A stretch of DNA of 64,000 nt. It comes from a virus. Its lineage: Duplodnaviria; Caudoviricetes. This document shows, in pieces, positions 15,784 through 60,807 of the stretch (position 1 is the stretch's first letter; the number at the start of each line of letters is the position of its first letter). Position numbers and translations under genes: made by a program. A model generated the notes under the pieces. The model was not told the DNA's origin. It searched no databases and saw only the letters and a program-made list of their open reading frames with translations. Location of the stretch: the IMG/VR virus record IMGVR_UViG_3300021426_000005, one strand, 5' to 3'.

Positions 15784-15819
15784 AGCAGACACCTCCCAAA
15801 GATTATATTGAATCATTAT

Positions 15820-24559: not shown

Positions 24560-26311
24560 ATGGATATTTATAATATCGCTAATGAACTGAAACTTTCTCA
24601 TAAGACCATTCATGATATTCCGCTTAGAGTAACATTCTATGCTAGGGTTTCTACTACAAGAGAAGAACAAGAAGGCTCTATAGAGCATCAGATCAGCTTC
24701 TTTACTGAAATGATCCAGAATAATCATAATTGGACGTTTATTCCGGGTTATGTGGATAGGATCAGAGGGGAATCCGCATCTAACCGTGAAAACTTCATGC
24801 GTATGATTGAAGATGGGAAGAATGATAAATTCGATTTAATCCTGACGAAAGAGGTTTCCAGATTTGCAAGAAACACAATTGACAGCTTAACTTATACTAG
24901 AGAGCTATTACGCTGCGGTGTAGGTGTATTCTTCCAGAATGACGGAATTTGCACCATTGATACTGATAGTGAACTGAGACTAACTATCATGTCAAGTATA
25001 GCAGCTGATGAAGTCAGAAAGCTCTCAGAGCGTGTACATTGGGGACAGAAACGTTCAATTGAGAACGGTAGGGTCATGGGTAACAACCGTATGTATGGCT
25101 ATCACAAGTCCGACTGCAAATTAGTCATAGATGAAGCTGAAGCTGAAATGGTCAGACTGATATACCAACTATATGCTACCGGAGATTATAGCACCCGGAA
25201 AATAGAAAAAATCCTCTACGAAAGAGGATTTAGAAGCCGGAGCGGTACTAAAATTTTTCATGGGGTAATATCTGGAATAATTCAGAATCCTAAATACAAA
25301 GGATATTACTGTGGAAATAAGGTCCGAATAGTAGACTACAGAACAAAACAGCAGAAGTTTCTTCCGGAAGAGGACTGGATCATATACAAAGACGAAACCG
25401 GTGAAGTTGTTCCAGCTATAGTTTCAGAAGAACTCTGGGATAAGGCGAATGCAGTCTTCCAGGAAAGAAGTCAGGCTATTAAGGTAAGAGGGAGATCTTT
25501 CAAAGATAAAAGTCCATTGACCGGAAAGATCTGGTGCGGAGCTGACGGAAGTGCCTATTGGAGAACGAGCTATTCCAACAGCATCAAGATGGGAAGCCCA
25601 ATTTACCAATGGGTATGTAGTTCAAAGAAAAAGGACGGTGCAGCTTCTTGTAAATCATTTGCTTTAATGGAATGGGAAGTATACTACATCTTATCAAATA
25701 CATTCAAATCACTAGTAGATGATATAGATACTTATGTATCAGAATTTCTTGAACTCCTAAAAGCTACAGATCCTACCAAAGATGTACAGAAAGATATACT
25801 AGCACTAACAGCAAAAATTGATCAATGTAAAACAAAGAAAGATAAACTATTAGAAATATATATGGACGATGCTATATCTAAAGCTGAGTTCAAAGCTAAA
25901 AATGATGATTTCAATAGAAAGATTGAAGAATATGAAGGCGAAATCAATGACCTCAAGGAATTGAAATCCGACACAGCTATGACAAGCCGTAAGCTCCATG
26001 AGATTGAAAAGTCTATCAAGGGCATATATCAATCAGATGATGAAGTAATTCCGAAAGCTCAGTTGGACGACCTGATAAAGACTGTACTGGATAAAATAGA
26101 AGTTTATCCTGATACTGAGGATTCAATGATTCTTAAAATCTTCCTAAAAACTGGGTCAGAAACATCAGTAACTCATTCAAAAGACTTGCGTTGTTCTGGA
26201 CACATCAAACATATGATTAAGCCACAACAACAATACATATTCAAAAGAAATTCTATAAAAAGACAGCATCATGAATTCCAAATCAGATATGATGCTGAAA
26301 TATACATATAA
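24560..26311 (+). CDS. large serine recombinase (integrase)
   Basis: YARVST catalytic motif, DLILTKEVSRFARN, recombinase domain, Zn ribbon (C..D...C...C), coiled coil. Confidence 0.92.
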   Translation: MDIYNIANELKLSHKTIHDIPLRVTFYARVSTTREEQEGSIEHQISFFTEMIQNNHNWTFIPGYVDRIRGESASNRENFMRMIEDGKNDKFDLILTKEVSRFARNTIDSLTYTRELLRCGVGVFFQNDGICTIDTDSELRLTIMSSIAADEVRKLSERVHWGQKRSIENGRVMGNNRMYGYHKSDCKLVIDEAEAEMVRLIYQLYATGDYSTRKIEKILYERGFRSRSGTKIFHGVISGIIQNPKYKGYYCGNKVRIVDYRTKQQKFLPEEDWIIYKDETGEVVPAIVSEELWDKANAVFQERSQAIKVRGRSFKDKSPLTGKIWCGADGSAYWRTSYSNSIKMGSPIYQWVCSSKKKDGAASCKSFALMEWEVYYILSNTFKSLVDDIDTYVSEFLELLKATDPTKDVQKDILALTAKIDQCKTKKDKLLEIYMDDAISKAEFKAKNDDFNRKIEEYEGEINDLKELKSDTAMTSRKLHEIEKSIKGIYQSDDEVIPKAQLDDLIKTVLDKIEVYPDTEDSMILKIFLKTGSETSVTHSKDLRCSGHIKHMIKPQQQYIFKRNSIKRQHHEFQIRYDAEIYI

Positions 26312-26346
26312 AATAAGGCTGGGATCAGTAAGTCCCAGCCTTTAGT

Positions 26347-28092
26347 TTATTCGATTGGATCAAGAGCATCAGCAATTCCACTCATGATATAAGCTACACA
26401 TGGTACCGCTACCGAATTTCCTAATGCTTTATATCTTGAAGCATCGGATTCAGGATAGGTCCAATTGTCAGGAAAACCCTGGAGCCTTTCGCATTCCACA
26501 GGCGTCAACCTCCGGACAATCGAATTTGATTTATATACTATCTTGGGGTCTTTATAATCCCTTGCAAGTAAGGTAGGTACAACTTCTTCATCACAACCCA
26601 TGAAATGCCCTGTAGTTGCGCAGAGTGCCGGCTGCTCCATTACCAACGGAACATTACCTCCACCAGTACCCATTCTCGCAGATAACGTCTGACATATTCC
26701 GTCATCGGAAATCTTTACCCTACTGTCTGCTGGATGATTTTCAATTAATACACCCATTCTCTGATTAGCCACTAAAGTAGGTGATAATTCTTCATTGTAT
26801 GGTAAACATGGCACTCCTGGACCGGCTTGATAAGCAAAAGCTGCTGAGGATTTTTCAGTTTGATCTTTTACGGAATAAGCAACCGCAGGTCTATCTATAG
26901 TAGTCAATGTATAAGATACATCTTCTTTCCAACCTTTACCATTGCAACTAGCGGTATCAGCTCTGTCAACGCAATTTCCTTGTATACAGTACACCGGTTC
27001 CTGAACTACCACATTTCCGCCTTGATTGCAAGTAGGATCTGTTCCTGTGGTATCAAGGGTCTTAGCTACATCTGCTTTGTAGAAGCCACTATTAGGATTA
27101 CCGGACTTCATAGAGTTCGATCCCATAGAACATATACCATAGACTTCCGATGCTTCTGATTGACTATCTACCAGCACAGACATCTGATTATCGCCCATCT
27201 GTGCTCTTAATGTACCGGAAAGCTCAGGCCATAGCCTTGAACCCTTTAGTCTTGAGGAAGCTCCTGGTTCAAATCCGTAGGTTGTTGTTTCTGCGACATC
27301 AGATGTGCTTGCCTTTCCAATGCTACTTTCAGCCTTTCCGGAAGCTCTTTTCCACGGGATTTCGCCCTGCGGAGTATGCCTTCGCAGGCTTTCTGGCTTA
27401 AATAATACCTCTCTTGCACGTTGTCCTCCAAGATCTGTGACAAGGAAGATTCTACGTCTGCGCTGGGGGACTCCCCAATATTCAGCATCGAGAGTCCTCC
27501 AAGCAAGGGATCCGGACTTTCCCAACAACTCCCCCGCTTTTGTCCACTGCTTAGGTCTAAACGTAGGAAGTTCTTCTCCAAATAGTCCAGCGAATTCTCG
27601 CAGGACGCAGTAGAAGTCGTCTCCATTGTTTGAGCTAAGACTCCCGAATACATTTTCCCAGATAATAAATTTCGGATACTCGCCATTAGTTGCTTCCCTC
27701 ATTTCTTTAATAATTCTGATCTGTTCTACAAATAGACCGCTTCGTGTTAGTTCCAATTCTGCTCCACACTCAGGGCAGGTAAAAACGTCAGAATTTGCAA
27801 GAATTGAAAATCCGCAGTCTTGGCAAATTCGTGAAATTCCGGCCTGCTTTCCGGCGATAGACAATGACTGACAGGGCGACCCTCCAGAAATTATATCAAC
27901 CGGATCAATTTTACCACCATCGATCTTCGTAATATCCCCAATATGCTTCATATTCGGGAAATGCCGTTTTGTGATGCGTATCGGAGCTTCTTCAATCTCA
28001 GAAGCCCATACTGGTTCAATACCGTACATCTGAGCTGCAAGTTCAAATCCACCGATACCAGAAAACAAACTTCCTAATGTCAGCTTAGGCAT
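26347..28092 (-). CDS. DNA (cytosine-5) methyltransferase with long variable region
   Basis: FSGIGG, GGSPCQ, ENV, QRRRR, RRLTPVECERLQGFP, GNSV motifs; repeated TL.A/TL.T TRD-like segments. Confidence 0.93.
   Translation of the reverse strand: MPKLTLGSLFSGIGGFELAAQMYGIEPVWASEIEEAPIRITKRHFPNMKHIGDITKIDGGKIDPVDIISGGSPCQSLSIAGKQAGISRICQDCGFSILANSDVFTCPECGAELELTRSGLFVEQIRIIKEMREATNGEYPKFIIWENVFGSLSSNNGDDFYCVLREFAGLFGEELPTFRPKQWTKAGELLGKSGSLAWRTLDAEYWGVPQRRRRIFLVTDLGGQRAREVLFKPESLRRHTPQGEIPWKRASGKAESSIGKASTSDVAETTTYGFEPGASSRLKGSRLWPELSGTLRAQMGDNQMSVLVDSQSEASEVYGICSMGSNSMKSGNPNSGFYKADVAKTLDTTGTDPTCNQGGNVVVQEPVYCIQGNCVDRADTASCNGKGWKEDVSYTLTTIDRPAVAYSVKDQTEKSSAAFAYQAGPGVPCLPYNEELSPTLVANQRMGVLIENHPADSRVKISDDGICQTLSARMGTGGGNVPLVMEQPALCATTGHFMGCDEEVVPTLLARDYKDPKIVYKSNSIVRRLTPVECERLQGFPDNWTYPESDASRYKALGNSVAVPCVAYIMSGIADALDPIE
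27246..27686 (-). CDS. overlapping alternative-frame polypeptide, M.EcoHK31I beta-subunit-like
   Basis: Nested in the C5-MTase gene, same strand; ESPSADVESSLSQILEDNVQERYYLSQKACEGILRRA..RGKELP. Confidence 0.65.
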   Translation of the reverse strand: MASIRNLLSGKMYSGVLAQTMETTSTASCENSLDYLEKNFLRLDLSSGQKRGSCWESPDPLLGGLSMLNIGESPSADVESSLSQILEDNVQERYYLSQKACEGILRRAKSRGKELPERLKVALERQAHLMSQKQQPTDLNQELPQD

Positions 28093-28216
28093 TATGTATT
28101 ATCCTCCATTATAAATAGTATATATAGATATATAAGGTCTGTTGTCTTTATACACTATCTATAACGATTGCAAAGAATAAAACTCACAAGGTTCAATTGG
28201 CCTTATGGGTTAAGTA

Positions 28217-28597
28217 TCAGTCAGGTTTCCAGCCATCATCCAGATAGCATTTATAATGTTGGCTGTTATCATATCGAACGGTTGGGACTTCCCTAAGCCC
28301 AAATTCAACCTTTATATCCGAGATCAAGTCATCCGGAACATTGGGATTCATGTATACTATAGGTTTCCCTTTGTTTGAAAAGTCTACACGACCTCTGGGG
28401 TAGTAATTATACGGCTTATTGCACCCCTTTGGTTTTACGTCCTGCCAGAGCTTCTTGTGATTATAGGTATTGCCAGATTTTGCTACACCTTGAGTATCAT
28501 AATCAATAAACGGAAATGCTAATAATTCATCATCTATGACCCAGAACACACCCCTAGTTGGTTCTTTCGCCATTGATTTTATATATAGCTTCATCAT
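28217..28597 (-). CDS. hypothetical protein with MKLYIKS leader
   Basis: ORF track; GVFW...H...W...Y.YYPRGRV. Confidence 0.65.
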   Translation of the reverse strand: MMKLYIKSMAKEPTRGVFWVIDDELLAFPFIDYDTQGVAKSGNTYNHKKLWQDVKPKGCNKPYNYYPRGRVDFSNKGKPIVYMNPNVPDDLISDIKVEFGLREVPTVRYDNSQHYKCYLDDGWKPD

Positions 28598-29217
28598 TCA
28601 TCAATCCTTTCCACATAGTCAAAGAATGCAGACAGCCATTCCGGTGGAGTTGATGTTGTCTGATCCATAGTATTAGAAATACGATTATACACAGCTACAA
28701 GTTGATACCCGTTGCTGCTATCATAGAATTTTGCCGTATCACAGTAGTCTAAAATTTTACTTAATTGTTCAAATCTATGATTATATCTACGGATAATCGT
28801 TTCACTTGGTATGTCGTGACCGCCATGCTTCACTCGGTTGGCTACCCTATCGATGCTATCCTGTGCGGAATTCAGACCGATATATATTAGGTTTATCGTA
28901 TACCCATGTTCCTTAGCTTTCTTAGCAGTAGCTATAATGTGCTTACCAGAAAGCGTAGTTTCTTCTGTAAATGCAAATCCATTTTCTATGCAATATTCAA
29001 TATCCTTTAATGCTTCTTTACCACCTTTGATATTGCCACCATACTTTATCGCATAGTCATCAGGATCTATAATTACACCGTATGATTCACTAGTTGTGCG
29101 CAAGATACCCATTGCTGAACTCTTTCCAACACCGTTTACGCCAGCAAGTATGGTGAATACCTTTTTCTTGACCTTAGTATCAACCACACTTATTATTCTT
29201 CTGATATACCGCTTCAT
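28594..29217 (-). CDS. zeta-toxin-family / COG4185 P-loop kinase with MKRYIRR leader
   Basis: LAGVNGVGKS, IDPD, EETTLSG, RVANRVKHGGHDIP..IIRRY. Confidence 0.8.
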   Translation of the reverse strand: MKRYIRRIISVVDTKVKKKVFTILAGVNGVGKSSAMGILRTTSESYGVIIDPDDYAIKYGGNIKGGKEALKDIEYCIENGFAFTEETTLSGKHIIATAKKAKEHGYTINLIYIGLNSAQDSIDRVANRVKHGGHDIPSETIIRRYNHRFEQLSKILDYCDTAKFYDSSNGYQLVAVYNRISNTMDQTTSTPPEWLSAFFDYVERIDE

Positions 29218-29385
29218 AACATCAGCCCCTTTATTGCATTATATCGGTTTTATTCAATATGTCAAGCACTTATTTCATATACTACGGCTGCATCCTGAAT
29301 ACAGTAATTCATTACTTGTAAAGCTGAAATATACCAGCCTAAAAGGAATCTGTATTTACTGAGCTTCATCAGGCTTTTCCTCCTA

Positions 29386-29850
29386 TTAGCTAACAATATC
29401 ATATGTGGCTACTTTATCCGAAGCATTGTAGTGCATTTCGCAGTACAAATCTTTTGCGTTTAGTAGCTTATCAATGAAGCGCTTAACGGATTGTGCCTGA
29501 GATTTCGTGATTTCCTTAAGTGTGGGACAGTAAGGGGATGCAACTTCGGAAACCCTATTCCCTTCTGCATCAAAACCAAAATCCGACAAAATAGATCTTG
29601 CAGCTTCTATTTTGTCAAATGTATTCGTATCGGCAGAAGGTTCATCATAAAGTCTTGTGTACTTATCATAGGACATTACAACTACACGGTCATCCGCAAA
29701 CACACGGAATGAGTTTATAAGCTCTTTTACTTCTGCTTCTGTTATTTTAGTCTTGTTGTAAATTACCGCCATACAGTGATCCACACCATTGTCGGTAACA
29801 GTGAACTCTATCATTTGCAAGTTCTTCGCTGTAATCCGTCTATTTTCCAT
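29386..29850 (-). CDS. hypothetical protein
   Basis: ORF track, GAGGAGG RBS. Confidence 0.6.
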   Translation of the reverse strand: MENRRITAKNLQMIEFTVTDNGVDHCMAVIYNKTKITEAEVKELINSFRVFADDRVVVMSYDKYTRLYDEPSADTNTFDKIEAARSILSDFGFDAEGNRVSEVASPYCPTLKEITKSQAQSVKRFIDKLLNAKDLYCEMHYNASDKVATYDIVS

Positions 29851-29862
29851 TGATATACCTCC

Positions 29863-30924
29863 TCAATTTTCTATTATATTTACAACCGCAGGTGCATCTT
29901 CATCAGATTTAGTATTGATGAACATAGGTGCTACCCACTTAACTACTAACTTACGCTCAGGTGTATCACGCTTACCAGTCCAATAGTGGTGGAAGTGTGC
30001 TCTCCTGGTGTGCGGTCTCTTCCTTGAATGCTTAGTAATTGTTCGGGATCCGCCGGAATGTTCGGTGTTGCTGTTCTGACGAATGATTTGGCCAACTCTA
30101 TACCCTACGTCCCATTTTTGAATAGAACTGAGCTTATCCTTACGAACATTAGCTTTCTTGTATATTTTCTTCTGCTCTGGGTTTTCTACCACATCACTAT
30201 TGATAGCGCAGAGATAAAGAAGTATCTGCACAGCAGTATTCAGGTGCATACCTACATGAGTATCGACTTCTGCAATATAGGCTTCGGCTTCATCAGGTTT
30301 AAGCCTATCCTTTTGAGAGAATACTGCTTCACGGAATAGTTTTGTGTAACCTTCTCTGGATTCTTTTATAGTCAAACCTGGTGTCATCGAAATAGGAAAT
30401 CCAAGCACGTTTCCATTTTTCATCACAAACATGATATGAAGTGAATTGAGGAATTCAGTGCTTACGGTAGAAACGTTTTCACCCTTATCAAAGATTTGAA
30501 CGTTTCTGGAACAGAAGAATCCTTCGCAGCCTGATGAATAATCATGGATATCTACATAGAATGAATCATAAGGGAGATTTCTAAGGGATTCGATTTCAAC
30601 GTCATCACACTCAGACAAAGTGAGTTCTTCTATCAGTGTAGGATCAAATGTGTAGATCTGAGAATATCTTCTCCATGCCGCTAAGTGAAACAAATCCTCT
30701 ACGTTTATCCCCTTGGTGTGAAGATTGAGCTTGCTACTAAGTTCAACATAAGCAGTCAGCGGAAGATAACAGCAACTATCCCAAGTCATACCAGATTGCA
30801 TCATGACATCACGGAACATATCTACCATTTCAAATACATCACCGTATCCGGTATCTATCTTGCGAATTTCCTTGATACGCTGTAGCGGTAAAGGCTCTGC
30901 TATAGTTCTTTTCCTTTTAGCCAT
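29863..30924 (-). CDS. AcrVA2/FinQ-family-like protein
   Basis: LAAWRRYSQIYTFD, LPYDSFYV, LLYLC, W.VG.R.G and RPHTRRAHFHHYWTG...WVAP motifs. Confidence 0.65.
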   Translation of the reverse strand: MAKRKRTIAEPLPLQRIKEIRKIDTGYGDVFEMVDMFRDVMMQSGMTWDSCCYLPLTAYVELSSKLNLHTKGINVEDLFHLAAWRRYSQIYTFDPTLIEELTLSECDDVEIESLRNLPYDSFYVDIHDYSSGCEGFFCSRNVQIFDKGENVSTVSTEFLNSLHIMFVMKNGNVLGFPISMTPGLTIKESREGYTKLFREAVFSQKDRLKPDEAEAYIAEVDTHVGMHLNTAVQILLYLCAINSDVVENPEQKKIYKKANVRKDKLSSIQKWDVGYRVGQIIRQNSNTEHSGGSRTITKHSRKRPHTRRAHFHHYWTGKRDTPERKLVVKWVAPMFINTKSDEDAPAVVNIIEN

Positions 30925-31122
30925 AATATCATCTCCTATATATGACAACGATTTGTGGTTTTCACTATCCTAATTATATCATACCGTACATATATTTTCA
31001 ATTAGTAAGTTGCACAAAGTTACAATATCGTAATTGTGTATATAGTACATATTGACAATTACGGCATTATATGTTAAAATAAGATAGCATCGTTATATGT
31101 TTATGAAAGGGGCTGATAACTT

Positions 31123-42822: not shown

Positions 42823-43272
42823 TCACTTCGCTAATTTCTCAAGCAGCTGTTCATATAGCTGTTTATAAAGATCACGTTCTGTTTTAATAACCAGATCCGG
42901 TGATATTTCCGGCTGAATCGGTGATATGATTTTAGGCGGATTACAGTTCAATCCCAAGGACGCCATAAGTGCATCATCTATAGGCTTCATCTCAGCATCT
43001 GTAAGGGACGTTATATAATCTCCAATCCGATTAACAGATACTGAATTGACCTGCTCACATAGAACGGTTGATGTCACGCCGTTTGCGGTCACTTCAGCAT
43101 GAGTTGGTAACTCAGGTTTATGCCTAGTAGTAAGATATACTACTTCAAGAACGTTGCTGAAGTGGTTGTTGGTGTTGTTTGATACAATTACACCAGGTCT
43201 ACCAGCTTCCTGCTCTGAGCCATATGCGGGCTGCTTGTATATGTAGAAAATATCTCCACGTTTGTATTCCAT
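42823..43272 (-). CDS. PemK/MazF-like protein
   Basis: KRGDIFY...GSEQEAGRPGVIVSNN...LTT...LCEQV.SV. Confidence 0.85.
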   Translation of the reverse strand: MEYKRGDIFYIYKQPAYGSEQEAGRPGVIVSNNTNNHFSNVLEVVYLTTRHKPELPTHAEVTANGVTSTVLCEQVNSVSVNRIGDYITSLTDAEMKPIDDALMASLGLNCNPPKIISPIQPEISPDLVIKTERDLYKQLYEQLLEKLAK

Positions 43273-47054: not shown

Positions 47055-47771
47055 TCAGATAAATATCAGACTGTCATCATAGAGAATTGAAGCCGCTACA
47101 TCCCCAACGACACCGTCATTTATAGCAGTGATGAGCTTACCCTTGCGTGTTGCGTTGGGGAACACCTGCTGAATCTCATCCATATAATCAGCAGTCTTTC
47201 TGTTGAGCTGATATCCAGATTTTGTTTTCCCCTCATTGCTCTTACCTGTACCCTCATATACAGTTATGTATATTTTTCCACCAGGCTTTACAATCTTTCT
47301 CATGTTTTCAAGAACACCAAGTCTATTCTCAGGTTCTTTTATAACATTGAGAACATTTGAACAGGTAGCAGTATCAGCCCCACCGTGTTCTCTTACAAGG
47401 TTGATGACTTCTCTGTTATGCTTCTTAGAGCGGTTGAATGGGTCAAGTACCATATTGATAACATCGTACTGTGTCAAATATTCTGCCACATTGTCAAACC
47501 GACCGCCACCGTAATCCACATTGACAGTTCCAGGTTCAAAGGTCACAAGATGAAATAATGCAGGAAGATTCTTAGCATTGATAGATGTATTTTCAGAAGT
47601 AAACTCCTGATCTATCTCCTTGATGGAATCCCACACATCTTCATACACATCATGTTCACCAGTATATTCCTCATAAGGATCTTCTTCTCTGGCACTATAT
47701 ATCTTACGTTCGGGATAACAAGCTCTTGCAGAAGAAACGCTGTGTTTTCTACTTCTAACTGTAATTTTCAT
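47055..47771 (-). CDS. class I SAM-dependent methyltransferase with basic leader
   Basis: VDYGGGRFD, LDPFN, ADTATCSNVLNVI. Confidence 0.75.
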   Translation of the reverse strand: MKITVRSRKHSVSSARACYPERKIYSAREEDPYEEYTGEHDVYEDVWDSIKEIDQEFTSENTSINAKNLPALFHLVTFEPGTVNVDYGGGRFDNVAEYLTQYDVINMVLDPFNRSKKHNREVINLVREHGGADTATCSNVLNVIKEPENRLGVLENMRKIVKPGGKIYITVYEGTGKSNEGKTKSGYQLNRKTADYMDEIQQVFPNATRKGKLITAINDGVVGDVAASILYDDSLIFI

Positions 47772-47852
47772 AGCAATTTCACCTCAAAAAATAAAAAATC
47801 GGTAATAGAATTACTCTCTATTACCGATATATAAGGTTATTTTGCATTGTAA

Positions 47853-49830: not shown

Positions 49831-51004
49831 TTATTTGCTAAGAATTCTATTAACTTCTTTCTCAAGTTCGTCAATGGAATATACTTGTTTAGAGCGATTT
49901 CCAGCCACATTCCTCACGATTACGGTACCGTCTTCTCTGATAAATACCTGCGCAGATGTCCACTTTTTAGGGTCAGATCGTAATAGATAGTTCTTACCGT
50001 CCATAGTCCAGGCTTCTTTAACATCGTAGGGACTAGATTCCACCCAATCTACAGCAACATCATAAGTGAGTTCATTTGTAGGGGCGACATAATTAGGATT
50101 ATTGATTCTGCGCTTGATAACTTTAGCGTTATAGCCATTGTCGATGTAGTCCCTAACATCTTGTTTTGCCAGCTTCAAGGATTCTGAAGATGTGTCATCA
50201 TATACAGCTATATCTTCCCAACCATAGCCAGGAACATATTCCTGTGAAACATACACTTCTATCTTTTTAGCATTTCGAGCGGATTTAATATACCGTTTCA
50301 TTGTAGTATTCACTCCTATAGAAAATATTAGTAACACCCTTATTACTGGAGTGTTGCTCTTTTCAGTTCTTCGAGGTTGTCAATAACGTGTAAGGAAGTA
50401 ATTCAGGCAACCTGTAACGATTTCATCATAAGTATGGGTGAAATCAAAGTCGTCCTGAATGTACTCCCCACCATCTTTCACAAGCCATATGTCATACCTA
50501 TCATCAGGATCTGGTGGGATAAGTTTGAATCTTGCATAGACATCACCATCATCAAATCTGATGATGACCTCTCTATCTGAAACCTCAACACCGTAGCCGA
50601 GGTCCTTAATTTTTTGGTACTGCCAAGAATCTTCCCAATTCTCACGGGAAGATTTGATGTATCTTTTCATAGAATTACCCCTTTCCCGCTCAAAGTTTTG
50701 CTACCGTAGCATCAGCAGAATTGCCGACATAGAGTTCGCCAGTATCTTTGTCTTCGATAAGGATACCAGAACGATAACCATTGGTATCATTCCAGGCAAT
50801 GCCTATGATCTCATAGTTCATTTCCATAGGATCAAATGTACCAGCCATATCTTCTGCAATACCGGAAGCTACCATATCCCTGAGTTCTTTTCTGGTGAAT
50901 AGGTACTTACCGGGGAATCTGCTTGTCTGCTTGCCGTATTTCTTTCCGTTAGGTGCTTTCCATGCGGAAGCCATTACGGAAGTGGATTTGATATATCGTT
51001 TCAT
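49831..51004 (-). CDS. three unrelated proteins each starting MKRYIKS (49831..50301, 50380..50670, 50690..51004)
   Basis: Identical 7-aa starts followed by unrelated bodies. Confidence 0.75.
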
Positions 51005-51903
51005 CAGTATTCCTCCTCCCCAGAAATTGCATTGATAGCACGCTCTACAACATCATTTATCCGATCATTGTTATCTATATCTGTAAGATATTCCGGTACC
51101 ACAACATTAGCCCATTCTTCTGGATCAACATCAATACCGCGATCATCACATACACTTAATACCATATTCTGCATTAAGGCATCAAGGTTTTCGTATAATA
51201 GTATGCTGTAATATTCAGACTGACACATCTGAAGCATCCTAACCATATCAGTTGTACCGTCAAGTAAGCCATTAACTGCCGCTTCTTCATATGCACCGCT
51301 TTCCCAAATTTCATATGCAGATTTGAACAAACTATCATAATAAATATCTACTTCACTATTTGCTTGTTCTGCAATTGCATCTCCAATATATGCGTCACTA
51401 TCGGAGTAGTTATATACAAACCCGTCTAGGCAGTTTTCTGGGGCAAGATGTTCATACGGATAAAAGTCATATTCTGCGTTTAGTACGTTATTGGTTGCAG
51501 CCATGATAGTCTTCCTTCCTTTACGCCTTGTGGAAGCCTGTACATCGTCTTCGTACATGATTTCGTCCTCGTAGTAGTCTCTCAGTTCTTCGGCAATAGC
51601 CTTCCTCGTAGCAGGACTGAGCATTGCAACTGATCCTCTACCAGAGCCGAATTCTTTGTCGTATCTTCTTACACCTTCGTCTGCAACATACTGCCAGAGC
51701 TTAACCGCAAGATCACGGTCATACTTGCCCTTCTTGTACTTACGCTTCAGATTTTCGATTGCCGGAGTGATACGCTCACGGTAAAGATCTCCATCATTTG
51801 TGATAGTAAGCACCAGCTCATCTACATCTTCTCTGGAAACCTGAGATCTGTCTACGGCAGCCGCCTTGACCGGTCTGTTATAAGCACGGTTTATCTTTTT
51901 CAT
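51004..51903 (-). CDS. two-domain polyprotein-like ORF; C-terminal domain Ocr (T7 gp0.3)-like
   Basis: RPVKAA leader, VQASTRRKGRKTIMAA linker; DAIAEQANSEVDIYY...GLLDGTTDMVRMLQ...E. Confidence 0.65.
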   Translation of the reverse strand: MKKINRAYNRPVKAAAVDRSQVSREDVDELVLTITNDGDLYRERITPAIENLKRKYKKGKYDRDLAVKLWQYVADEGVRRYDKEFGSGRGSVAMLSPATRKAIAEELRDYYEDEIMYEDDVQASTRRKGRKTIMAATNNVLNAEYDFYPYEHLAPENCLDGFVYNYSDSDAYIGDAIAEQANSEVDIYYDSLFKSAYEIWESGAYEEAAVNGLLDGTTDMVRMLQMCQSEYYSILLYENLDALMQNMVLSVCDDRGIDVDPEEWANVVVPEYLTDIDNNDRINDVVERAINAISGEEEY

Positions 51904-52216
51904 AAGTAAGTTCCTCCTTAATAAAGTGGTTGTGTTATAGTTACCTATAACACTATATAAGGTTACAAGCCGTGTTTTTTGCATTTCACGATGTAGATAT
52001 CGGTCGCAAAGTTATATCATTTTTGCACATATCGCACTTGAATGTGTGGGGCTTTCTACCTAAAAGGTATAGGTTTTCTGTATGATATTCCAGACCGCAA
52101 TGAGGGCATTTGTACACCGGATCATTAGAATCATCACTGACACATATTGTTTCTTTTGCATCAGGATCTATCGGCCAGTCTAACGGATTATAGAAATGTA
52201 ACATATCACCAGCCCC

Positions 52217-53254: not shown

Positions 53255-54391
53255 TCAATCTTCGGTATATCTTGAAGGATCATACTCAAACTTCACCAGA
53301 TCTGTGATGAATTTTCCTATTTCCTCCCACTTACCCAAGAAGTAATGTATACTATCATAGTAATCCATATCCTCTTGTTTAAGCTCTGGGAATTTCAGAT
53401 TTGGTGTGAAGTAGTAGATGCCATCATCGGGATCCTGATTGGTAGTGACCGTAATTTCTGGTAGATACTTTGCATCACTACCCTTAGCTTTTAGGGTTAT
53501 CTGCAAATCATCAGATACTTCCATATCATAGTCGTTTCTGTCAGCAGACTTCCACAGTTCAAGAAATGGTCCGTCAATCAGAGCATCAGAACTCTGAGCT
53601 GCGGTTATAGGTCTTTTTGTAATTTTCATTGTGTATCACCTCAATCAATTATAATCGGAATTCTGTTTACTACTGTGATATAGTTATCACTATATCCAGA
53701 AGCGTGTGTATAATATCTGTTATCGATCCAGTTGTTGCCGATAGCGTCATCCCAGCCATACTTTGCATATCTCAAAGCCCGCTGGAACATCTTATAAGAC
53801 GGATCGTTTATCAGCTTATCTCTCCAACGCTCTGCGGTTTTTCTGTCCTTATATACGATCAGATTATATCGTGCAGAGTAATTGTCCTGGGTCATTACAC
53901 CGAACTCAGGCTGATCTTCTTCGTAAGCAAAAGCTACATCATAGTCATTTGCTTTTATGTATCTTTTCATAATAGCACCTCACTTAAACTTAGTGTCTGT
54001 CCCAGAAATTCCAGCCAGATCCATCCGATCCAGAATTTCTTCCTCTGTTAGCTTTAGCTTCAAAAGTGGATTGTGTATCTAACCACAATGGTTCATCACA
54101 ATATACACCCCTTGATGCTAGTTTCGTAGCAACATCATATGTACTGCCAGTTTTCAATTTATACCAAGGTGAATCTAACATAGCCCAATCAGTATCTGTT
54201 ATTTTGCTAAAATAACAATTTCCGGCATCCCAATCCATACCTATGACTGCACCTATCGGAAACCTATTCAAAACAGCTTCGTATTCCTGGATGTCAGCAT
54301 AAGTAGTCTTTGAATATCCAGGAAATACAGGTAAATTGTTTAATTCCGTCAGTATACTTTCTTCTTTAGAACACCGAATATATCTTTTCAT
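53255..54391 (-). CDS. three leader-bearing hypothetical proteins (53255..53629, 53641..53970, 53990..54391)
   Basis: Starts MKITKRPITAA, MKRYIKAN, MKRYIRCS. Confidence 0.7.
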
Positions 54392-54400
54392 AACAGCACC

Positions 54401-54886
54401 TCACTTAAACATATTGTTATCCCAATCCCCGGTATAGTCAAGCATAGCCTTTCTACTGGGAATGGTTTGAATCTCATGATACTTTATTCCCCATTTGTTG
54501 ATCTTCAATACGTTCAGGGAATGTTTCTTCTTCTCTTTAATAAGATAATCGATATCCCTTATGTCAAGAATGAAAGCTCTTTGATAAGAAGCGAACAGAA
54601 CTATGATCACCCCATAAGTACCTTCTATCTTCGACTTTTTCAGAAGATTGTCATACTGATAGTCGGTTATCATTGAGAAGTCAAATCTATCGGCATAAGT
54701 GGCTTTGCTTTCGATGTAGAACATATTAGGTTTCTTATACAGCGTGAAGTCACAGATGTTCTTACTGCCTACAAATCCTGTCATTTGGTCCTTTATTCTA
54801 TCAAAAGAATACCCTTCTTCTGGTCGGTCTAACCAGGCTTCTATCTTAGCTTCTGCCTTTTTACCTAACAGATCATCTCTTACCAT
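54401..54886 (-). CDS. RecU-like Holliday junction resolvase (PD-(D/E)xK)
   Basis: GKKAE...ICDF......YIESKAT....F....I.DYQ. Confidence 0.7.
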   Translation of the reverse strand: MVRDDLLGKKAEAKIEAWLDRPEEGYSFDRIKDQMTGFVGSKNICDFTLYKKPNMFYIESKATYADRFDFSMITDYQYDNLLKKSKIEGTYGVIIVLFASYQRAFILDIRDIDYLIKEKKKHSLNVLKINKWGIKYHEIQTIPSRKAMLDYTGDWDNNMFK

Positions 54887-58230: not shown

Positions 58231-60807
58231 TTAGATGTTTGTTATCGCATTGTAGATAGCCTCTGCGGCAGGCTTTGCAATACCCTTAACATACTCTTCG
58301 ATAGCTTCCATATCGTAGTTGTTAGGATCAAGATTGCTTGAATTCCAGATAAGTTCAACCTTATCGATCTCATTACCCTTTACATAGATATAGAATTCAA
58401 GTTCTCCGACTTCCTTACCACCACGGAAATCATAGTGGTAGGCATCAGGCAGAGCATATGATACAACGTCTATATCATCAGTATCGAATGTAGCACTGAT
58501 TGTATAAGTAACGCCTACATATGTGCTAGAAGCATAATACTCAAAGGTATCTTCCATGATAGTAGCGTATTCATCAACCTTAGCAAGCTCAGTTGTAGGA
58601 AGAACTTCACGCTCTGCGATTCTGTAGAGTTCATCTACCGTAGACTCAGATATTGCTTCTCCATTGGAATCGAAGCCATAACCGTAGTCTTCGTCTTCGC
58701 CATTGATAGGCTCAAGGTCTTCATAGGTAGCCGCTTCAACAGTCTTACCAGCTACACTCTTTACAGCGGCAGCCAGCTCCTCCGCATCATCATCTTCATC
58801 ACCAAGAATAGGTGTGATCTCATCGGTAGGCTGAATATACACTACATCATCTTCGGTACCGTCATAGAATGACAGTGCTTCATCTGTAACTGCACAGCCG
58901 ATACCTTCGTATCCGTCATCGTGAAGAATACCAAGGGTCATATCTGCAAGCATCTGATTGTACTCTGCTGCTGAGATATTTTCTGATGCACACTTTACCG
59001 ACTTAGCATCACTTCTTCTCACGGTAGAAGCTGTGATACCATTAGCAAGGAAACTACCTAATCCATTCTGGAAATCCGTATATGCCTTTATGCGGCTATC
59101 TTCATAGGCATCACGAATTTCAGATAGTCTTTCAAGCCATTCAGGTGTCAAATATTGATCATCAAAGTCAACCTGCGGTGCATAGATTTGTCTGTTACCA
59201 GGGTAAAGCTGAATATAGAACTCATTTCCGTTTACAGCATTCTGATTGTATATGTAGTTTACCGGATCTTCATCAAGCGGATTAGCGAGATCTGCTTCAA
59301 GCATTTCCTCATACAAGTCATGATCCATAGCATCAAGGAAAAACCAAAAATCAGTTTCAACAGCTTCGGGACTCAAACCAGCATCTACTGACCAATCATC
59401 CGGACCGTTGTACTTCACACTGTCAGTATTCAGCCAAGCACCACTACTGGGATCCTGAAGGAAAGCATCTACATATTCCAGCATATCGCTGTCTTCAAAG
59501 CCGTCGTACTCATAAGAATCATTCAGCATATCATTGACATCTTCTTCAGAAGACTCCCATGTATCTGCCTTTATAGCCTTACGTCTGATTTTCGATGTAC
59601 ACTTCACTGACTTAGTACCAGTCACCTCTTCTGTAGCAGGGAAGATCTCAAAATCGAGAATACCGTCTCCATCTTCGTAGTTATTTTCATCATCTACGAA
59701 ATCATAGTATATAAGCTCACAGAATGTATAAGCTGTCTCAGAAGCATCACCATATTCATCATCGAACAGAGGGTCGCCGAACTGATTACACCACTCCTGG
59801 AATTTCAGTCGGGTCTCATCGTCCTGACAGAGTGGAAGTATAGCATCATACATATCAGCTCCTGGCTGACCTTCATATATCTTCTCGCCGTTGAAGTACA
59901 TTACAATGTCTCCACCCTCATACCAAGCGGCAGTTACTTTAGTGCCGTTTCTTCTCTTGGTAGAAGCACCAATACCCATTGACTTCCAGACTTTATCCCT
60001 GAAATCTGCGATTTCGTTTGTTACAACGAACTCACCATCAAAATTCTCAGCATAAACGTCAGGATCAATGTCTATCATATCACCGGTCTTGAAGTAAATG
60101 ATATTAACATACAAGCCCTGCATGAGAAGTTCATGTGCATAACTTTCTACTTCTGACCATTCATCAGGTCCGAAATATCTATCTGCGTATGCACCGCTGC
60201 GATTTGAACCAAGGTATCCGGTTACTGCGAAACCGTTTTCATTCCACGAAGCCTTTACAGCCCTACGTCTTTTAGCTGACTTAGAAGCCTTAATATTGAA
60301 CTTTCTTTTATAAACAGACCCACCTATAGGGGATGCGTATTTACGTCCCTTAAAAGTGAATGTAGCCGTACCATCGAGAGCTGCTTGCTTTGCTTCTTCA
60401 GGAGTATCATAAATCTCTTTAGATATATCCCATGCAAATTCACCATTTTCAGCTTCATTCATAGATCTACGAATTCTATACCCATATGGACGTTTAACTA
60501 CCCGAAGCTGCGCCCCATCATCATCTTTGAGAACGATTTCAGCATCATTTTCACGAACAAGCTCCGCACCGGCTTTTACAGATTTCTTACCACAAGCAGA
60601 TTCAACTACTTCGTAGCCCTTCTTCTTAGCCCAGGCTATCGCACCCTTTTTACTTTTCCAATTGTTAGGGGCAGAAGTAAGAACCTGATTATCCTCTGCA
60701 TTTTTCAAACCGTAATACTCTCCGGATTGACCCTTATTGATAACATAAGGAGTGACCTTGAGGGTAGAACTGTTGGAAGAAGCAGTTACTTTGAATTTTC
60801 TCATCAT
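58231..60807 (-). CDS. seven-module polyprotein-like ORF: mostly acidic domains joined by basic [VI]x[ASC] linkers
   Basis: KVTAS; KKSVKAG; IKAS..RRRAVKAS; IGAS.KRR..KVTAA; SVKC..RRKAIKAD; ITAS..RR..SVKCAS..ISAA; VKS..KTVEAA. Confidence 0.75.
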   Translation of the reverse strand: MMRKFKVTASSNSSTLKVTPYVINKGQSGEYYGLKNAEDNQVLTSAPNNWKSKKGAIAWAKKKGYEVVESACGKKSVKAGAELVRENDAEIVLKDDDGAQLRVVKRPYGYRIRRSMNEAENGEFAWDISKEIYDTPEEAKQAALDGTATFTFKGRKYASPIGGSVYKRKFNIKASKSAKRRRAVKASWNENGFAVTGYLGSNRSGAYADRYFGPDEWSEVESYAHELLMQGLYVNIIYFKTGDMIDIDPDVYAENFDGEFVVTNEIADFRDKVWKSMGIGASTKRRNGTKVTAAWYEGGDIVMYFNGEKIYEGQPGADMYDAILPLCQDDETRLKFQEWCNQFGDPLFDDEYGDASETAYTFCELIYYDFVDDENNYEDGDGILDFEIFPATEEVTGTKSVKCTSKIRRKAIKADTWESSEEDVNDMLNDSYEYDGFEDSDMLEYVDAFLQDPSSGAWLNTDSVKYNGPDDWSVDAGLSPEAVETDFWFFLDAMDHDLYEEMLEADLANPLDEDPVNYIYNQNAVNGNEFYIQLYPGNRQIYAPQVDFDDQYLTPEWLERLSEIRDAYEDSRIKAYTDFQNGLGSFLANGITASTVRRSDAKSVKCASENISAAEYNQMLADMTLGILHDDGYEGIGCAVTDEALSFYDGTEDDVVYIQPTDEITPILGDEDDDAEELAAAVKSVAGKTVEAATYEDLEPINGEDEDYGYGFDSNGEAISESTVDELYRIAEREVLPTTELAKVDEYATIMEDTFEYYASSTYVGVTYTISATFDTDDIDVVSYALPDAYHYDFRGGKEVGELEFYIYVKGNEIDKVELIWNSSNLDPNNYDMEAIEEYVKGIAKPAAEAIYNAITNI

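Follow-up and report, generated by a model that had tools for sequence, protein, structure and literature searches.

A C-terminal Ocr-family module behind a basic leader and an exchangeable helical domain in a temperate Oscillospiraceae phage, a candidate for pre-packaged anti-restriction cargo

Can a DNA mimic of the Ocr type reach the host cell as a finished protein inside the phage head? This question is raised by a gene in a 64,000-nucleotide stretch of viral DNA (IMG/VR record IMGVR_UViG_3300021426_000005; in the following, the window), which stems from a large phage of gut or rumen Oscillospiraceae. A megablast search with the part at 49-54 kb against the GenBank phages gave no match. 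The gene encodes a protein with an Ocr-like domain at its C-terminus (Table 1). A first-pass annotation, made without database searches, had recognized this domain by eye as a homologue of T7 Ocr, placed behind a targeting leader and under a late-type motif. Two answers of different strength are given here. The C-terminal module belongs to the Ocr family with very little doubt. For its delivery we lean, with confidence slightly past an even balance, towards a two-module precursor that would be released by the head protease, packaged and injected as anti-restriction cargo.

The frame 51004..51984 (-) is open throughout its 326 aa and includes VQASTRRKGRKTIMAATNNVLNAEYDF, DAIAEQANSEVDIYYDSLF and GLLDGTTDMVRMLQMCQSEYYSILLYENLDAL in that order. 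All residues quoted initially for the Ocr domain were present in this translation, and the segment originally assigned to the domain, 51004-51495, comprises the stop codon and all residues C-terminal of IMAA. The module matched PHROG 2568, 'ocr-like anti-restriction', with an E-value of 3.5e-13 over profile positions 6-150 of 161. PF08684 (ocr) was the sole relevant Pfam match of the protein and scored 17.2 bits, below the cut-off of 25 bits. In a phmmer search of the protein against the PDB, T7 Ocr ranked first at E 0.4; HMMER thus reproduced the alignment made by eye, pairing query residues 176-274 with Ocr 15-105. A profile from an alignment of 39 family members (A2) reached T7 Ocr in the PDB at E 1e-6, covering Ocr residues 9-112, and eight of the 39 members matched PF08684 with E-values up to 3.5e-5. 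The AlphaFold2 (AF2) model of the module had a pLDDT of 93.7. A Foldseek comparison, which the first-pass annotation had proposed as a check, returned Ocr for all of the top four matches at probabilities of 0.96-0.99. Superposition on 1S7Z with VIA-align yielded a Z-score of 9.2 and an rmsd of 2.4 Å for 100 of 106 residues at 24 % identity; seven Ocr chains scored Z 7.9-9.2, the next, unrelated chain only 3.1. Since the PHROG match, the profile comparison with Ocr in the PDB and the structural Z-score agree, the resemblance is far above chance, and the proposed homology stands.

An exhaustive search collected 67 relatives of the module, mostly stand-alone proteins of ~155-165 aa, which have a helical C-terminal extension of ~40 residues in common (alignment A2). 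The direct family consists of PHROG 2568 proteins of Bacillus phages (Shbh1, Tsamsa, Izhevsk, phiAGATE and others) and metagenomic relatives of ~160 aa, all with this extension; tblastn with the module retrieved stand-alone proteins of Bacillus phages annotated as Ocr-like, at 30-39 % identity. The proteins of this direct family start at the domain, have no leader, and none is reported to be processed or packaged. With T7 gp0.3 Ocr (1S7Z, PF08684) the module shares the fold, the strong acidity, a profile-detectable homology and the conserved block D-A-I-x-x-x-A-D/N-x-x-V-x-x-Y-Y. It differs in the sequence, of which about a quarter is identical, in the 40-residue extension and in the fusion behind a partner domain and a basic leader. 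There are 35 D/E and 5 K/R residues, a pI of 4.05 and a net charge of about -30, a composition that fits the acidic, DNA-like surface of the family. T7 Ocr is a homodimer that imitates bent B-DNA; a predicted complex of two module copies scored 0.38, the mark being 0.42, which speaks neither for nor against a dimer. The module probably acts as an anti-restriction DNA mimic.

Translation most likely begins with the ATG at 51903 (MKKINRAY...), which is favoured because AAGGAGG precedes it by 9 nt and because a 95%-identical relative, P0002, was called at 299 aa. The ATG at 51984 is unlikely as a start. The partner domain in front of the Ocr module is a confident four-helix bundle in the AF2 model, and the confidence falls below 50 in the spacer of the linker. 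The view of an Ocr domain fused behind a targeting leader was thus correct in part: a basic leader and a linker with a recurrent motif are present, but a separate, shuffled four-helix domain also precedes Ocr. Homologues of the full protein mostly match this first domain only, at 50-90 % identity. It occurs in 38 other proteins, placed N-terminally, internally or C-terminally among entirely different other modules, and also alone as phage proteins of ~107 aa. A role of the N-terminal partner domain as targeting device is ruled out by these N-terminal, internal, C-terminal and lone leaderless occurrences. Searches for its identity gave only weak matches below threshold in Pfam (DUF7602, Bud3_N), only uncharacterised viral proteins in BFVD, and a best Z-score of 5.6 in a structure scan of the full PDB, which is uninformative for a helical bundle.

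Each junction between the partner domain and a following module has the form [DE]-x-[VI]-x-[AS]-[AS] and continues with a basic stretch, to which [VI]-x-A-[AS] is often added. Of the 31 homologues in which a module follows, 24 have the strict motif [IV]x[AS][AS] no more than 30 residues behind the partner domain; no more than 20 residues in front of it, 24 of 37 homologues have one. The chance level is 0.067 per 30-residue window. The Ocr module, for its part, occurs without a partner, preceded by a leader of its own, in P0011 (MKVYANKSKNSKGKSLRKITAS↓T...; arrow, putative cut) and in P0040 (MKRYVKSDGKKNKRVIKCS↓Q...), the latter within a syntenic phage block. Shuffling of the partner domain at the linkers, together with the lone Ocr modules behind their own leaders, characterizes the modules as exchangeable units bounded by the motif.

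The motif is a property of the block at 47-61 kb. Its 20 genes contain the strict form [IV]-x-[AS]-[AS] 32 times, 3.5-fold more than the expected 9.1 +/- 3.0, and 11 of them have it within the first 25 residues, where 0.9 would be expected. In the remaining 70 genes of the window the motif is not enriched, either in total (26 versus 34.7 expected) or in the first 25 residues (3 versus 3.1). The block also contains untagged proteins (RecU, an HD hydrolase and two membrane proteins), and homologues elsewhere of the Ocr-like module and the partner domain are mostly leaderless. The MKRYIK[AS]-type leaders differ in synonymous codons and are preceded by unrelated DNA, apart from one adjacent pair; this argues for selection of the motif at the protein level and not at the DNA level. 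The adjacent tagged genes in 53970-54410 (-) (MKRYIKAN..., MKRYIRCS...) have 14 of the last 16 upstream bases identical (gtttaagtgaggtgct[a/g]tt), which may be the footprint of a local duplication or recombination. A tagged 96-aa gene at 50380-50670 (-) (MKRYIKSS...) is absent from the syntenic, ~95%-identical contig L067, where a 104-aa gene is followed directly by a 156-aa gene; the difference resembles the gain or loss of a single tagged gene as a cassette.

The link of the motif to the phage head comes from related prophages. Searching viral contigs with the single full-length protein revealed no related loci; these were found with an alignment of the partner domain instead. The partner domain and a syntenic helicase (59-68 % identical) led to prophages in an Oscillospiraceae metagenome-assembled genome (MAG), in a Clostridium sp. 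MAG and in Ruminococcus callidus ATCC 27760. In the first and the last of these, with a helicase identity of 59-60 %, the genes for a protease-scaffold fusion and for the capsid protein lie just upstream of the helicase gene. The protease-scaffold of the Oscillospiraceae MAG matched PF03420 (Peptidase_S77) with 34.9 bits (cut-off 27) and also PHROG 207, and its capsid protein matched PF07068 (Gp23) with 57.5 bits (cut-off 24.4). A scan of the genomes with the PF03420 profile had missed this protease; inspection of the locus brought it to light, and hmmscan confirmed it. For R. callidus, the assignment of both proteins comes from their alignment with the MAG counterparts, at 49 % identity for the protease-scaffold and 59 % for the capsid N-terminus. 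The HK97-type protease, Peptidase_S78, was sought in the relatives and not found.

The leader motif, as [IV]-x-[AS]-[AS/G], is present in the capsid leader as well as in the scaffold of these relatives. Their capsid proteins carry a basic propeptide of ~85 residues with several motif copies, the last of which (SITAA or SIMGA) directly precedes the conserved TNT[ST]NIAA[KR]PDF. In the scaffold, copies occur at aligned positions of the two prophages: ITSAT and ITSST, RITAS and RITSS, VTAST in both. These copies are putative cut sites of the head protease. The putative [IV]-x-A↓S site is similar to that of herpesvirus assemblin, which cuts at V-x-A↓S. A distant phage, represented by a 202-kb IMG/VR contig (L011), encodes an S77 protease above the Pfam cut-off, and the junctions of its partner-domain protein are of the x-x-E-S type: V-T-F-E-S, then a basic stretch, then M-T-E-S. 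One aligned N-terminal site of the protease is L-N-E-S in this phage versus I-K-A-S and V-N-A-D in the two prophages. That cargo junctions and head-protein sites co-vary in this way is, computationally, the strongest reason to regard the junctions as prohead-protease sites.

Further observations concern these head loci. The R. callidus prophage (L056, at about 1.474-1.494 Mb of the chromosome, and L045), in a cultured type-collection strain, encodes a tagged polyprotein and a T4-type protease-scaffold together with a Gp23-like capsid protein whose leader is rich in the motif. A conserved protein of ~115 aa adjoins the head genes (L063:4624-4983 (+) and L056:3488-3829 (-)); it is basic at both ends, in the tagged leader and in the motif-bearing tail, and acidic in between (for example MKIKMNRKVAAKSAVKGRRVMA...VSASTNRR...), and may be a component of the head core.

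The timing of expression was approached by the DNA upstream of the gene. The upstream motif claimed in the first-pass annotation was recovered as an exact AACCTTATATA plus a hairpin, 50 nt before the start. In the window, AACCTTNTATA has nine exact copies, eight of them on the gene strand, and with one mismatch allowed 22 matches were counted versus 8.1 +/- 2.7 expected. The Ocr gene is preceded by such a copy, as are four further genes in the tagged block; the tail-fibre module has an exact copy 3 nt ahead of its first gene, at 15816. Five copies of the word occur in the MAG prophage, each on the gene strand. They are located in front of fibre genes, within the protease gene ahead of the capsid gene, and immediately upstream of the gene for a 719-aa polyprotein with the partner domain. 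The word is also kept in the relatives L063/G001, L064 and L067. Its presence before fibre, capsid-region and polyprotein genes marks it as a conserved signal common to structural genes, and AACCTTATATA might accordingly serve as a late promoter. A Pfam search on sigma-like and other regulators (3.6-6.8 kb), the polyprotein at 58231-60807 and the fibre genes gave no hits, and no sigma factor was tied to AACCTTATATA. At 47838, 49760, 51964 and 54976 (-) the word is directly continued by a strong hairpin, in many cases with a T-run behind it, just ahead of the ribosome-binding site of the next gene; terminator, promoter overlap and RNA processing are candidate roles of this conserved arrangement.

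Taken together, the following course of events is proposed. The precursor, composed of a 14-residue basic leader, the four-helix domain, a 12-residue basic spacer with two [IV]-x-A↓[AS] sites and the 164-residue acidic Ocr mimic, would be transcribed along with the structural genes. The basic leader or spacer would bring it into the core of the assembling prohead, where the gp21-type (S77) prohead protease of the phage would cut at the small-residue sites. The untagged Ocr-like protein freed by this cut would be retained in the head, ejected together with the DNA and would titrate type I restriction-modification (R-M) or BREX-type enzymes before phage gene expression. Late timing, cleavage, packaging, injection and target are all steps that we infer. 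Among the readings considered, packaged cargo appears the most likely one because the motif recurs in the Gp23-like capsid propeptide and in the S77 protease-scaffold of the relatives. For its single steps the expectations differ: cutting of the linker by the head protease is fairly likely, while packaging and injection of the Ocr-like protein stand about evenly for and against. A more general code is tentative and somewhat doubtful, namely that in T4-headed temperate Oscillospiraceae/Ruminococcus phages the P1 residue of the gp21-family protease has switched from Glu to Ala/Ser and that an MK[RK]YI[KR][AS] leader or a site-basic spacer-site linker directs packing, cutting and injection.

Several points weigh against this proposal. 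The head genes of the window phage itself lie outside the window, and the connection to head maturation rests on relatives; the three nearest prophage relatives lack the Ocr module; the Pfam ocr score of the module stays under the gathering cut-off; and the late timing is assumed from the co-occurrence of the upstream word. All characterised gp21-family proteases cut after Glu, so that a cut after Ala or Ser would be new for the family (PMC10052503). Moreover, the internal proteins of T4 are basic (PMC9026906), whereas the Ocr-like cargo is very acidic.

The T4 internal proteins are the closest analogue of the tagged Ocr cargo. Their leader, the capsid targeting sequence (CTS), is removed by gp21; once injected, the products block restriction enzymes (PMC9026906, PMC12373910). 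As with IPI, Ip2 and Ip3 of T4, the window block presents unrelated small genes with a common short N-terminal leader, relatives of the window phage have a T4-type head with gp21-like protease and Gp23-like capsid protein, and the payload is one of anti-restriction, in the window phage predicted to act so and to arrive with the DNA. The differences are distinct. The T4 leader reads MKTYQEFIAE, the window leaders MK[RK]YI[KR] plus small residues; the P1 residue of T4 is Glu (L/I-x-E), while the window sites have Ala or Ser at the putative P1, so the specificity class differs. The T4 cargo is basic, the window cargo acidic, and the latter is also joined into polyproteins in which paired sites flank basic spacers. 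The window phage has Oscillospiraceae as hosts, and its packaging of cargo is predicted. In the giant phages phiKZ and SPN3US head and ejection proteins are processed by a gp21-family protease at A-x-E (PMC10052503). Many of these proteins carry propeptides that are cut off at a short P3-x-P1 motif, with several motifs per propeptide, which resembles the putative sites here; P1 is Glu, however, and neither an Ocr-like cargo nor module-spacer-module polyproteins are described there. Polyvalent proteins carry several counter-defence domains per polypeptide and were predicted to travel with the invading DNA, with a proteolytic release proposed (Iyer et al. 2017, PMC5512222); the same survey obtained only a phyletically limited set in searches with T7 Ocr. 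They are usually very large, have their own zincin-like peptidase and lack regular linkers, whereas the window cargo has few modules joined by a stereotyped site-spacer-site linker. The window protein itself comprises two modules, one Ocr-like, the other the four-helix partner domain, and no Pfam or PHROG match in this protein (P0001) was obtained for the polyvalent signature domains (zincin-like metallopeptidase (MPTase), LPD domains, MuF, ADP-ribosyltransferases (ARTs) and others).

Instead of being packaged, a genuine Ocr-like anti-restriction protein could act in the cytoplasm, intact or cut by a phage or host protease in the cell, the leader and linker serving another purpose, for instance polyprotein processing, known from other viruses, or the solubility of very acidic modules. 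We consider this unlikely, yet it is the best of the alternatives. The Ocr homology holds equally well under it, T7 Ocr and the Ocr-like genes of Bacillus phages, several of which lie close to a genome end, are expressed in the ordinary way, and fused Ocr-like proteins without such linkers exist. Also the gene resides in a block with RecU, the HD hydrolase and helicases and not in a head module. A purely cytoplasmic role leaves unexplained, however, why the motif recurs in the capsid propeptide and protease-scaffold of the relatives, why the upstream word is common to fibre and capsid genes, and why the clearly cytoplasmic enzymes of the same block are free of the tag. T7 Ocr is the first early gene, and the window gene has an upstream word of the structural-gene type; a protein made from such a late-type signal would come too late to shield incoming DNA.

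Improbable is a use of the Ocr fold outside restriction, either as an acidic internal or scaffold-like head part that offsets basic core peptides, or as an inhibitor of another DNA-binding host protein such as RNA polymerase. The versatility of Ocr speaks for it, as PDB entries show Ocr bound to RNA polymerase, PARIS AriA and BrxX as well as to type I enzymes, and so do the low identity to T7 Ocr and the extra C-terminal extension. But the family is annotated and widespread as an accessory anti-restriction gene. The Ocr module was sought in the three genomes with related prophages and not found; it is thus an accessory module outside the core of the lineage, and such variable presence among close relatives would be anticipated for a counter-defence gene but not for a structural component. 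Type I specificity (S) subunit genes were present in two of these three genomes and PglZ in one, so plausible Ocr targets exist. Restriction is a clear pressure also on the window phage, given its many DNA methyltransferases. A large serine recombinase is encoded in 24560-38990 (PHROG 95, E 1.5e-101), and behind it, in this region, come at least two and probably five or more genes for DNA methyltransferases. Methylation of its own DNA is a heavy investment of this temperate phage, in keeping with the additional carriage of an R-M inhibitor.

Least probable are leaders and linkers as by-products of cassette recombination or of an optimised translation start (Lys/Arg-rich, A-rich codons) in a protein that stays an uncut fusion: AAA is common at codon 2 in Firmicutes, the neighbours at 53970 and 54391 share upstream bases as well as the leader, and the loss of the tagged gene at 50380-50670 from a 95%-identical relative resembles a cassette indel, but the other leaders differ synonymously behind unrelated upstream DNA, the motif also lies internally at domain junctions, where translation starts are irrelevant, and it becomes x-x-E in the lineage with the T4-like site.

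Packaged Ocr cargo would combine known kinds, Ocr and targeted internal proteins of the T4 type, and is not a new category. If the proposal is true, an Ocr-type DNA mimic is pre-made, injected cargo rather than a first-expressed early gene, a second answer to the question of timing in restriction evasion that joins two textbook systems, T7 Ocr and T4 IPI*. It would be the first DNA-mimic anti-restriction protein delivered pre-made in the capsid, and the gp21 head-protease family would gain a member with small-residue P1 specificity. Leader and site-spacer-site linker would then reveal from the genome which proteins these abundant gut and rumen phages inject; about a dozen genes without assigned function are so marked in the 47-61 kb block. 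The linker would also be a portable, designable connector for cargo. A related prophage resides in the cultured R. callidus ATCC 27760, which makes the idea directly testable. Should the model be false, the annotation as an Ocr-family domain in an unusual fusion would still be sound.

Table 1. Coordinates of the Ocr-domain gene, its parts and its flanking elements in the window (arrow, putative cut)
Feature	Position	Strand	Basis or remark
Promoter-like word AACCTTATATA, preceded by TTGT	51954..51964	-	exact match
Hairpin GTGTTATAG-GTAA-CTATAACAC, 9-bp stem, directly after the word	51932..51953	-	read from sequence
Ribosome-binding site AAGGAGG	51913..51919	-	9 nt before ATG
Gene with C-terminal Ocr-like domain	51004..51903	-	299 aa, ATG with ribosome-binding site
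Basic N-terminal leader MKKINRAYNRPVKA, 14 residues, with the motif V-K-A↓A at its end	51862..51903	-	translation
Partner module, four-helix domain, ~109 residues (residues 42-150 of the 326-aa frame)	51535..51861	-	AF2 pLDDT 87.5
Basic spacer STRRKGRKTIMA, 12 residues, between paired motifs VQA↓S and IMA↓A	51499..51534	-	translation
Ocr-like module ATNNVL...GEEEY, 164 aa	51007..51498	-	PHROG 2568 and profile match to T7 Ocr
Core superposing on T7 Ocr, model residues 14-121	51130..51453	-	structural alignment to 1S7Z
C-terminal helical extension without counterpart in T7 Ocr, conserved IDNN-DR..D motif	51007..51129	-	family alignment and AF2 model
Stop codon TGA of the Ocr-domain gene	51004-51006	-	
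Next gene MKRYIKSTSVMASA... (starts MKRYIKST...)	50690..51004	-	ATG overlaps the TGA of the Ocr gene as ATGA, base 51004 common to both

Outside the Ocr gene, a methyltransferase-like protein at 47055-47771 (-) also starts with a tagged leader (MKITVRSRKHSVSSA...); its Pfam match to Methyltransf_23 reached 25.6 bits at a cut-off of 27. If the tag directs packaging, this product would be a virion-borne methyltransferase, reminiscent of DarB of phage P1. A 149-aa protein at 42823-43272 (-), beginning with MEYKRGDIFYIY..., is encoded between a helicase and an SbcC-like ATPase. Its counterpart in L067 has equal length, is syntenic, follows a UvrD-type helicase gene and is recorded as PF02452, PemK/MazF toxin. 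In the distant phage L011 the gene for the terminase large subunit (L011:6318-8750 (+)) contains an apparent intein-like insert (...CFTADTEIHLADGR...VFVHNS...).

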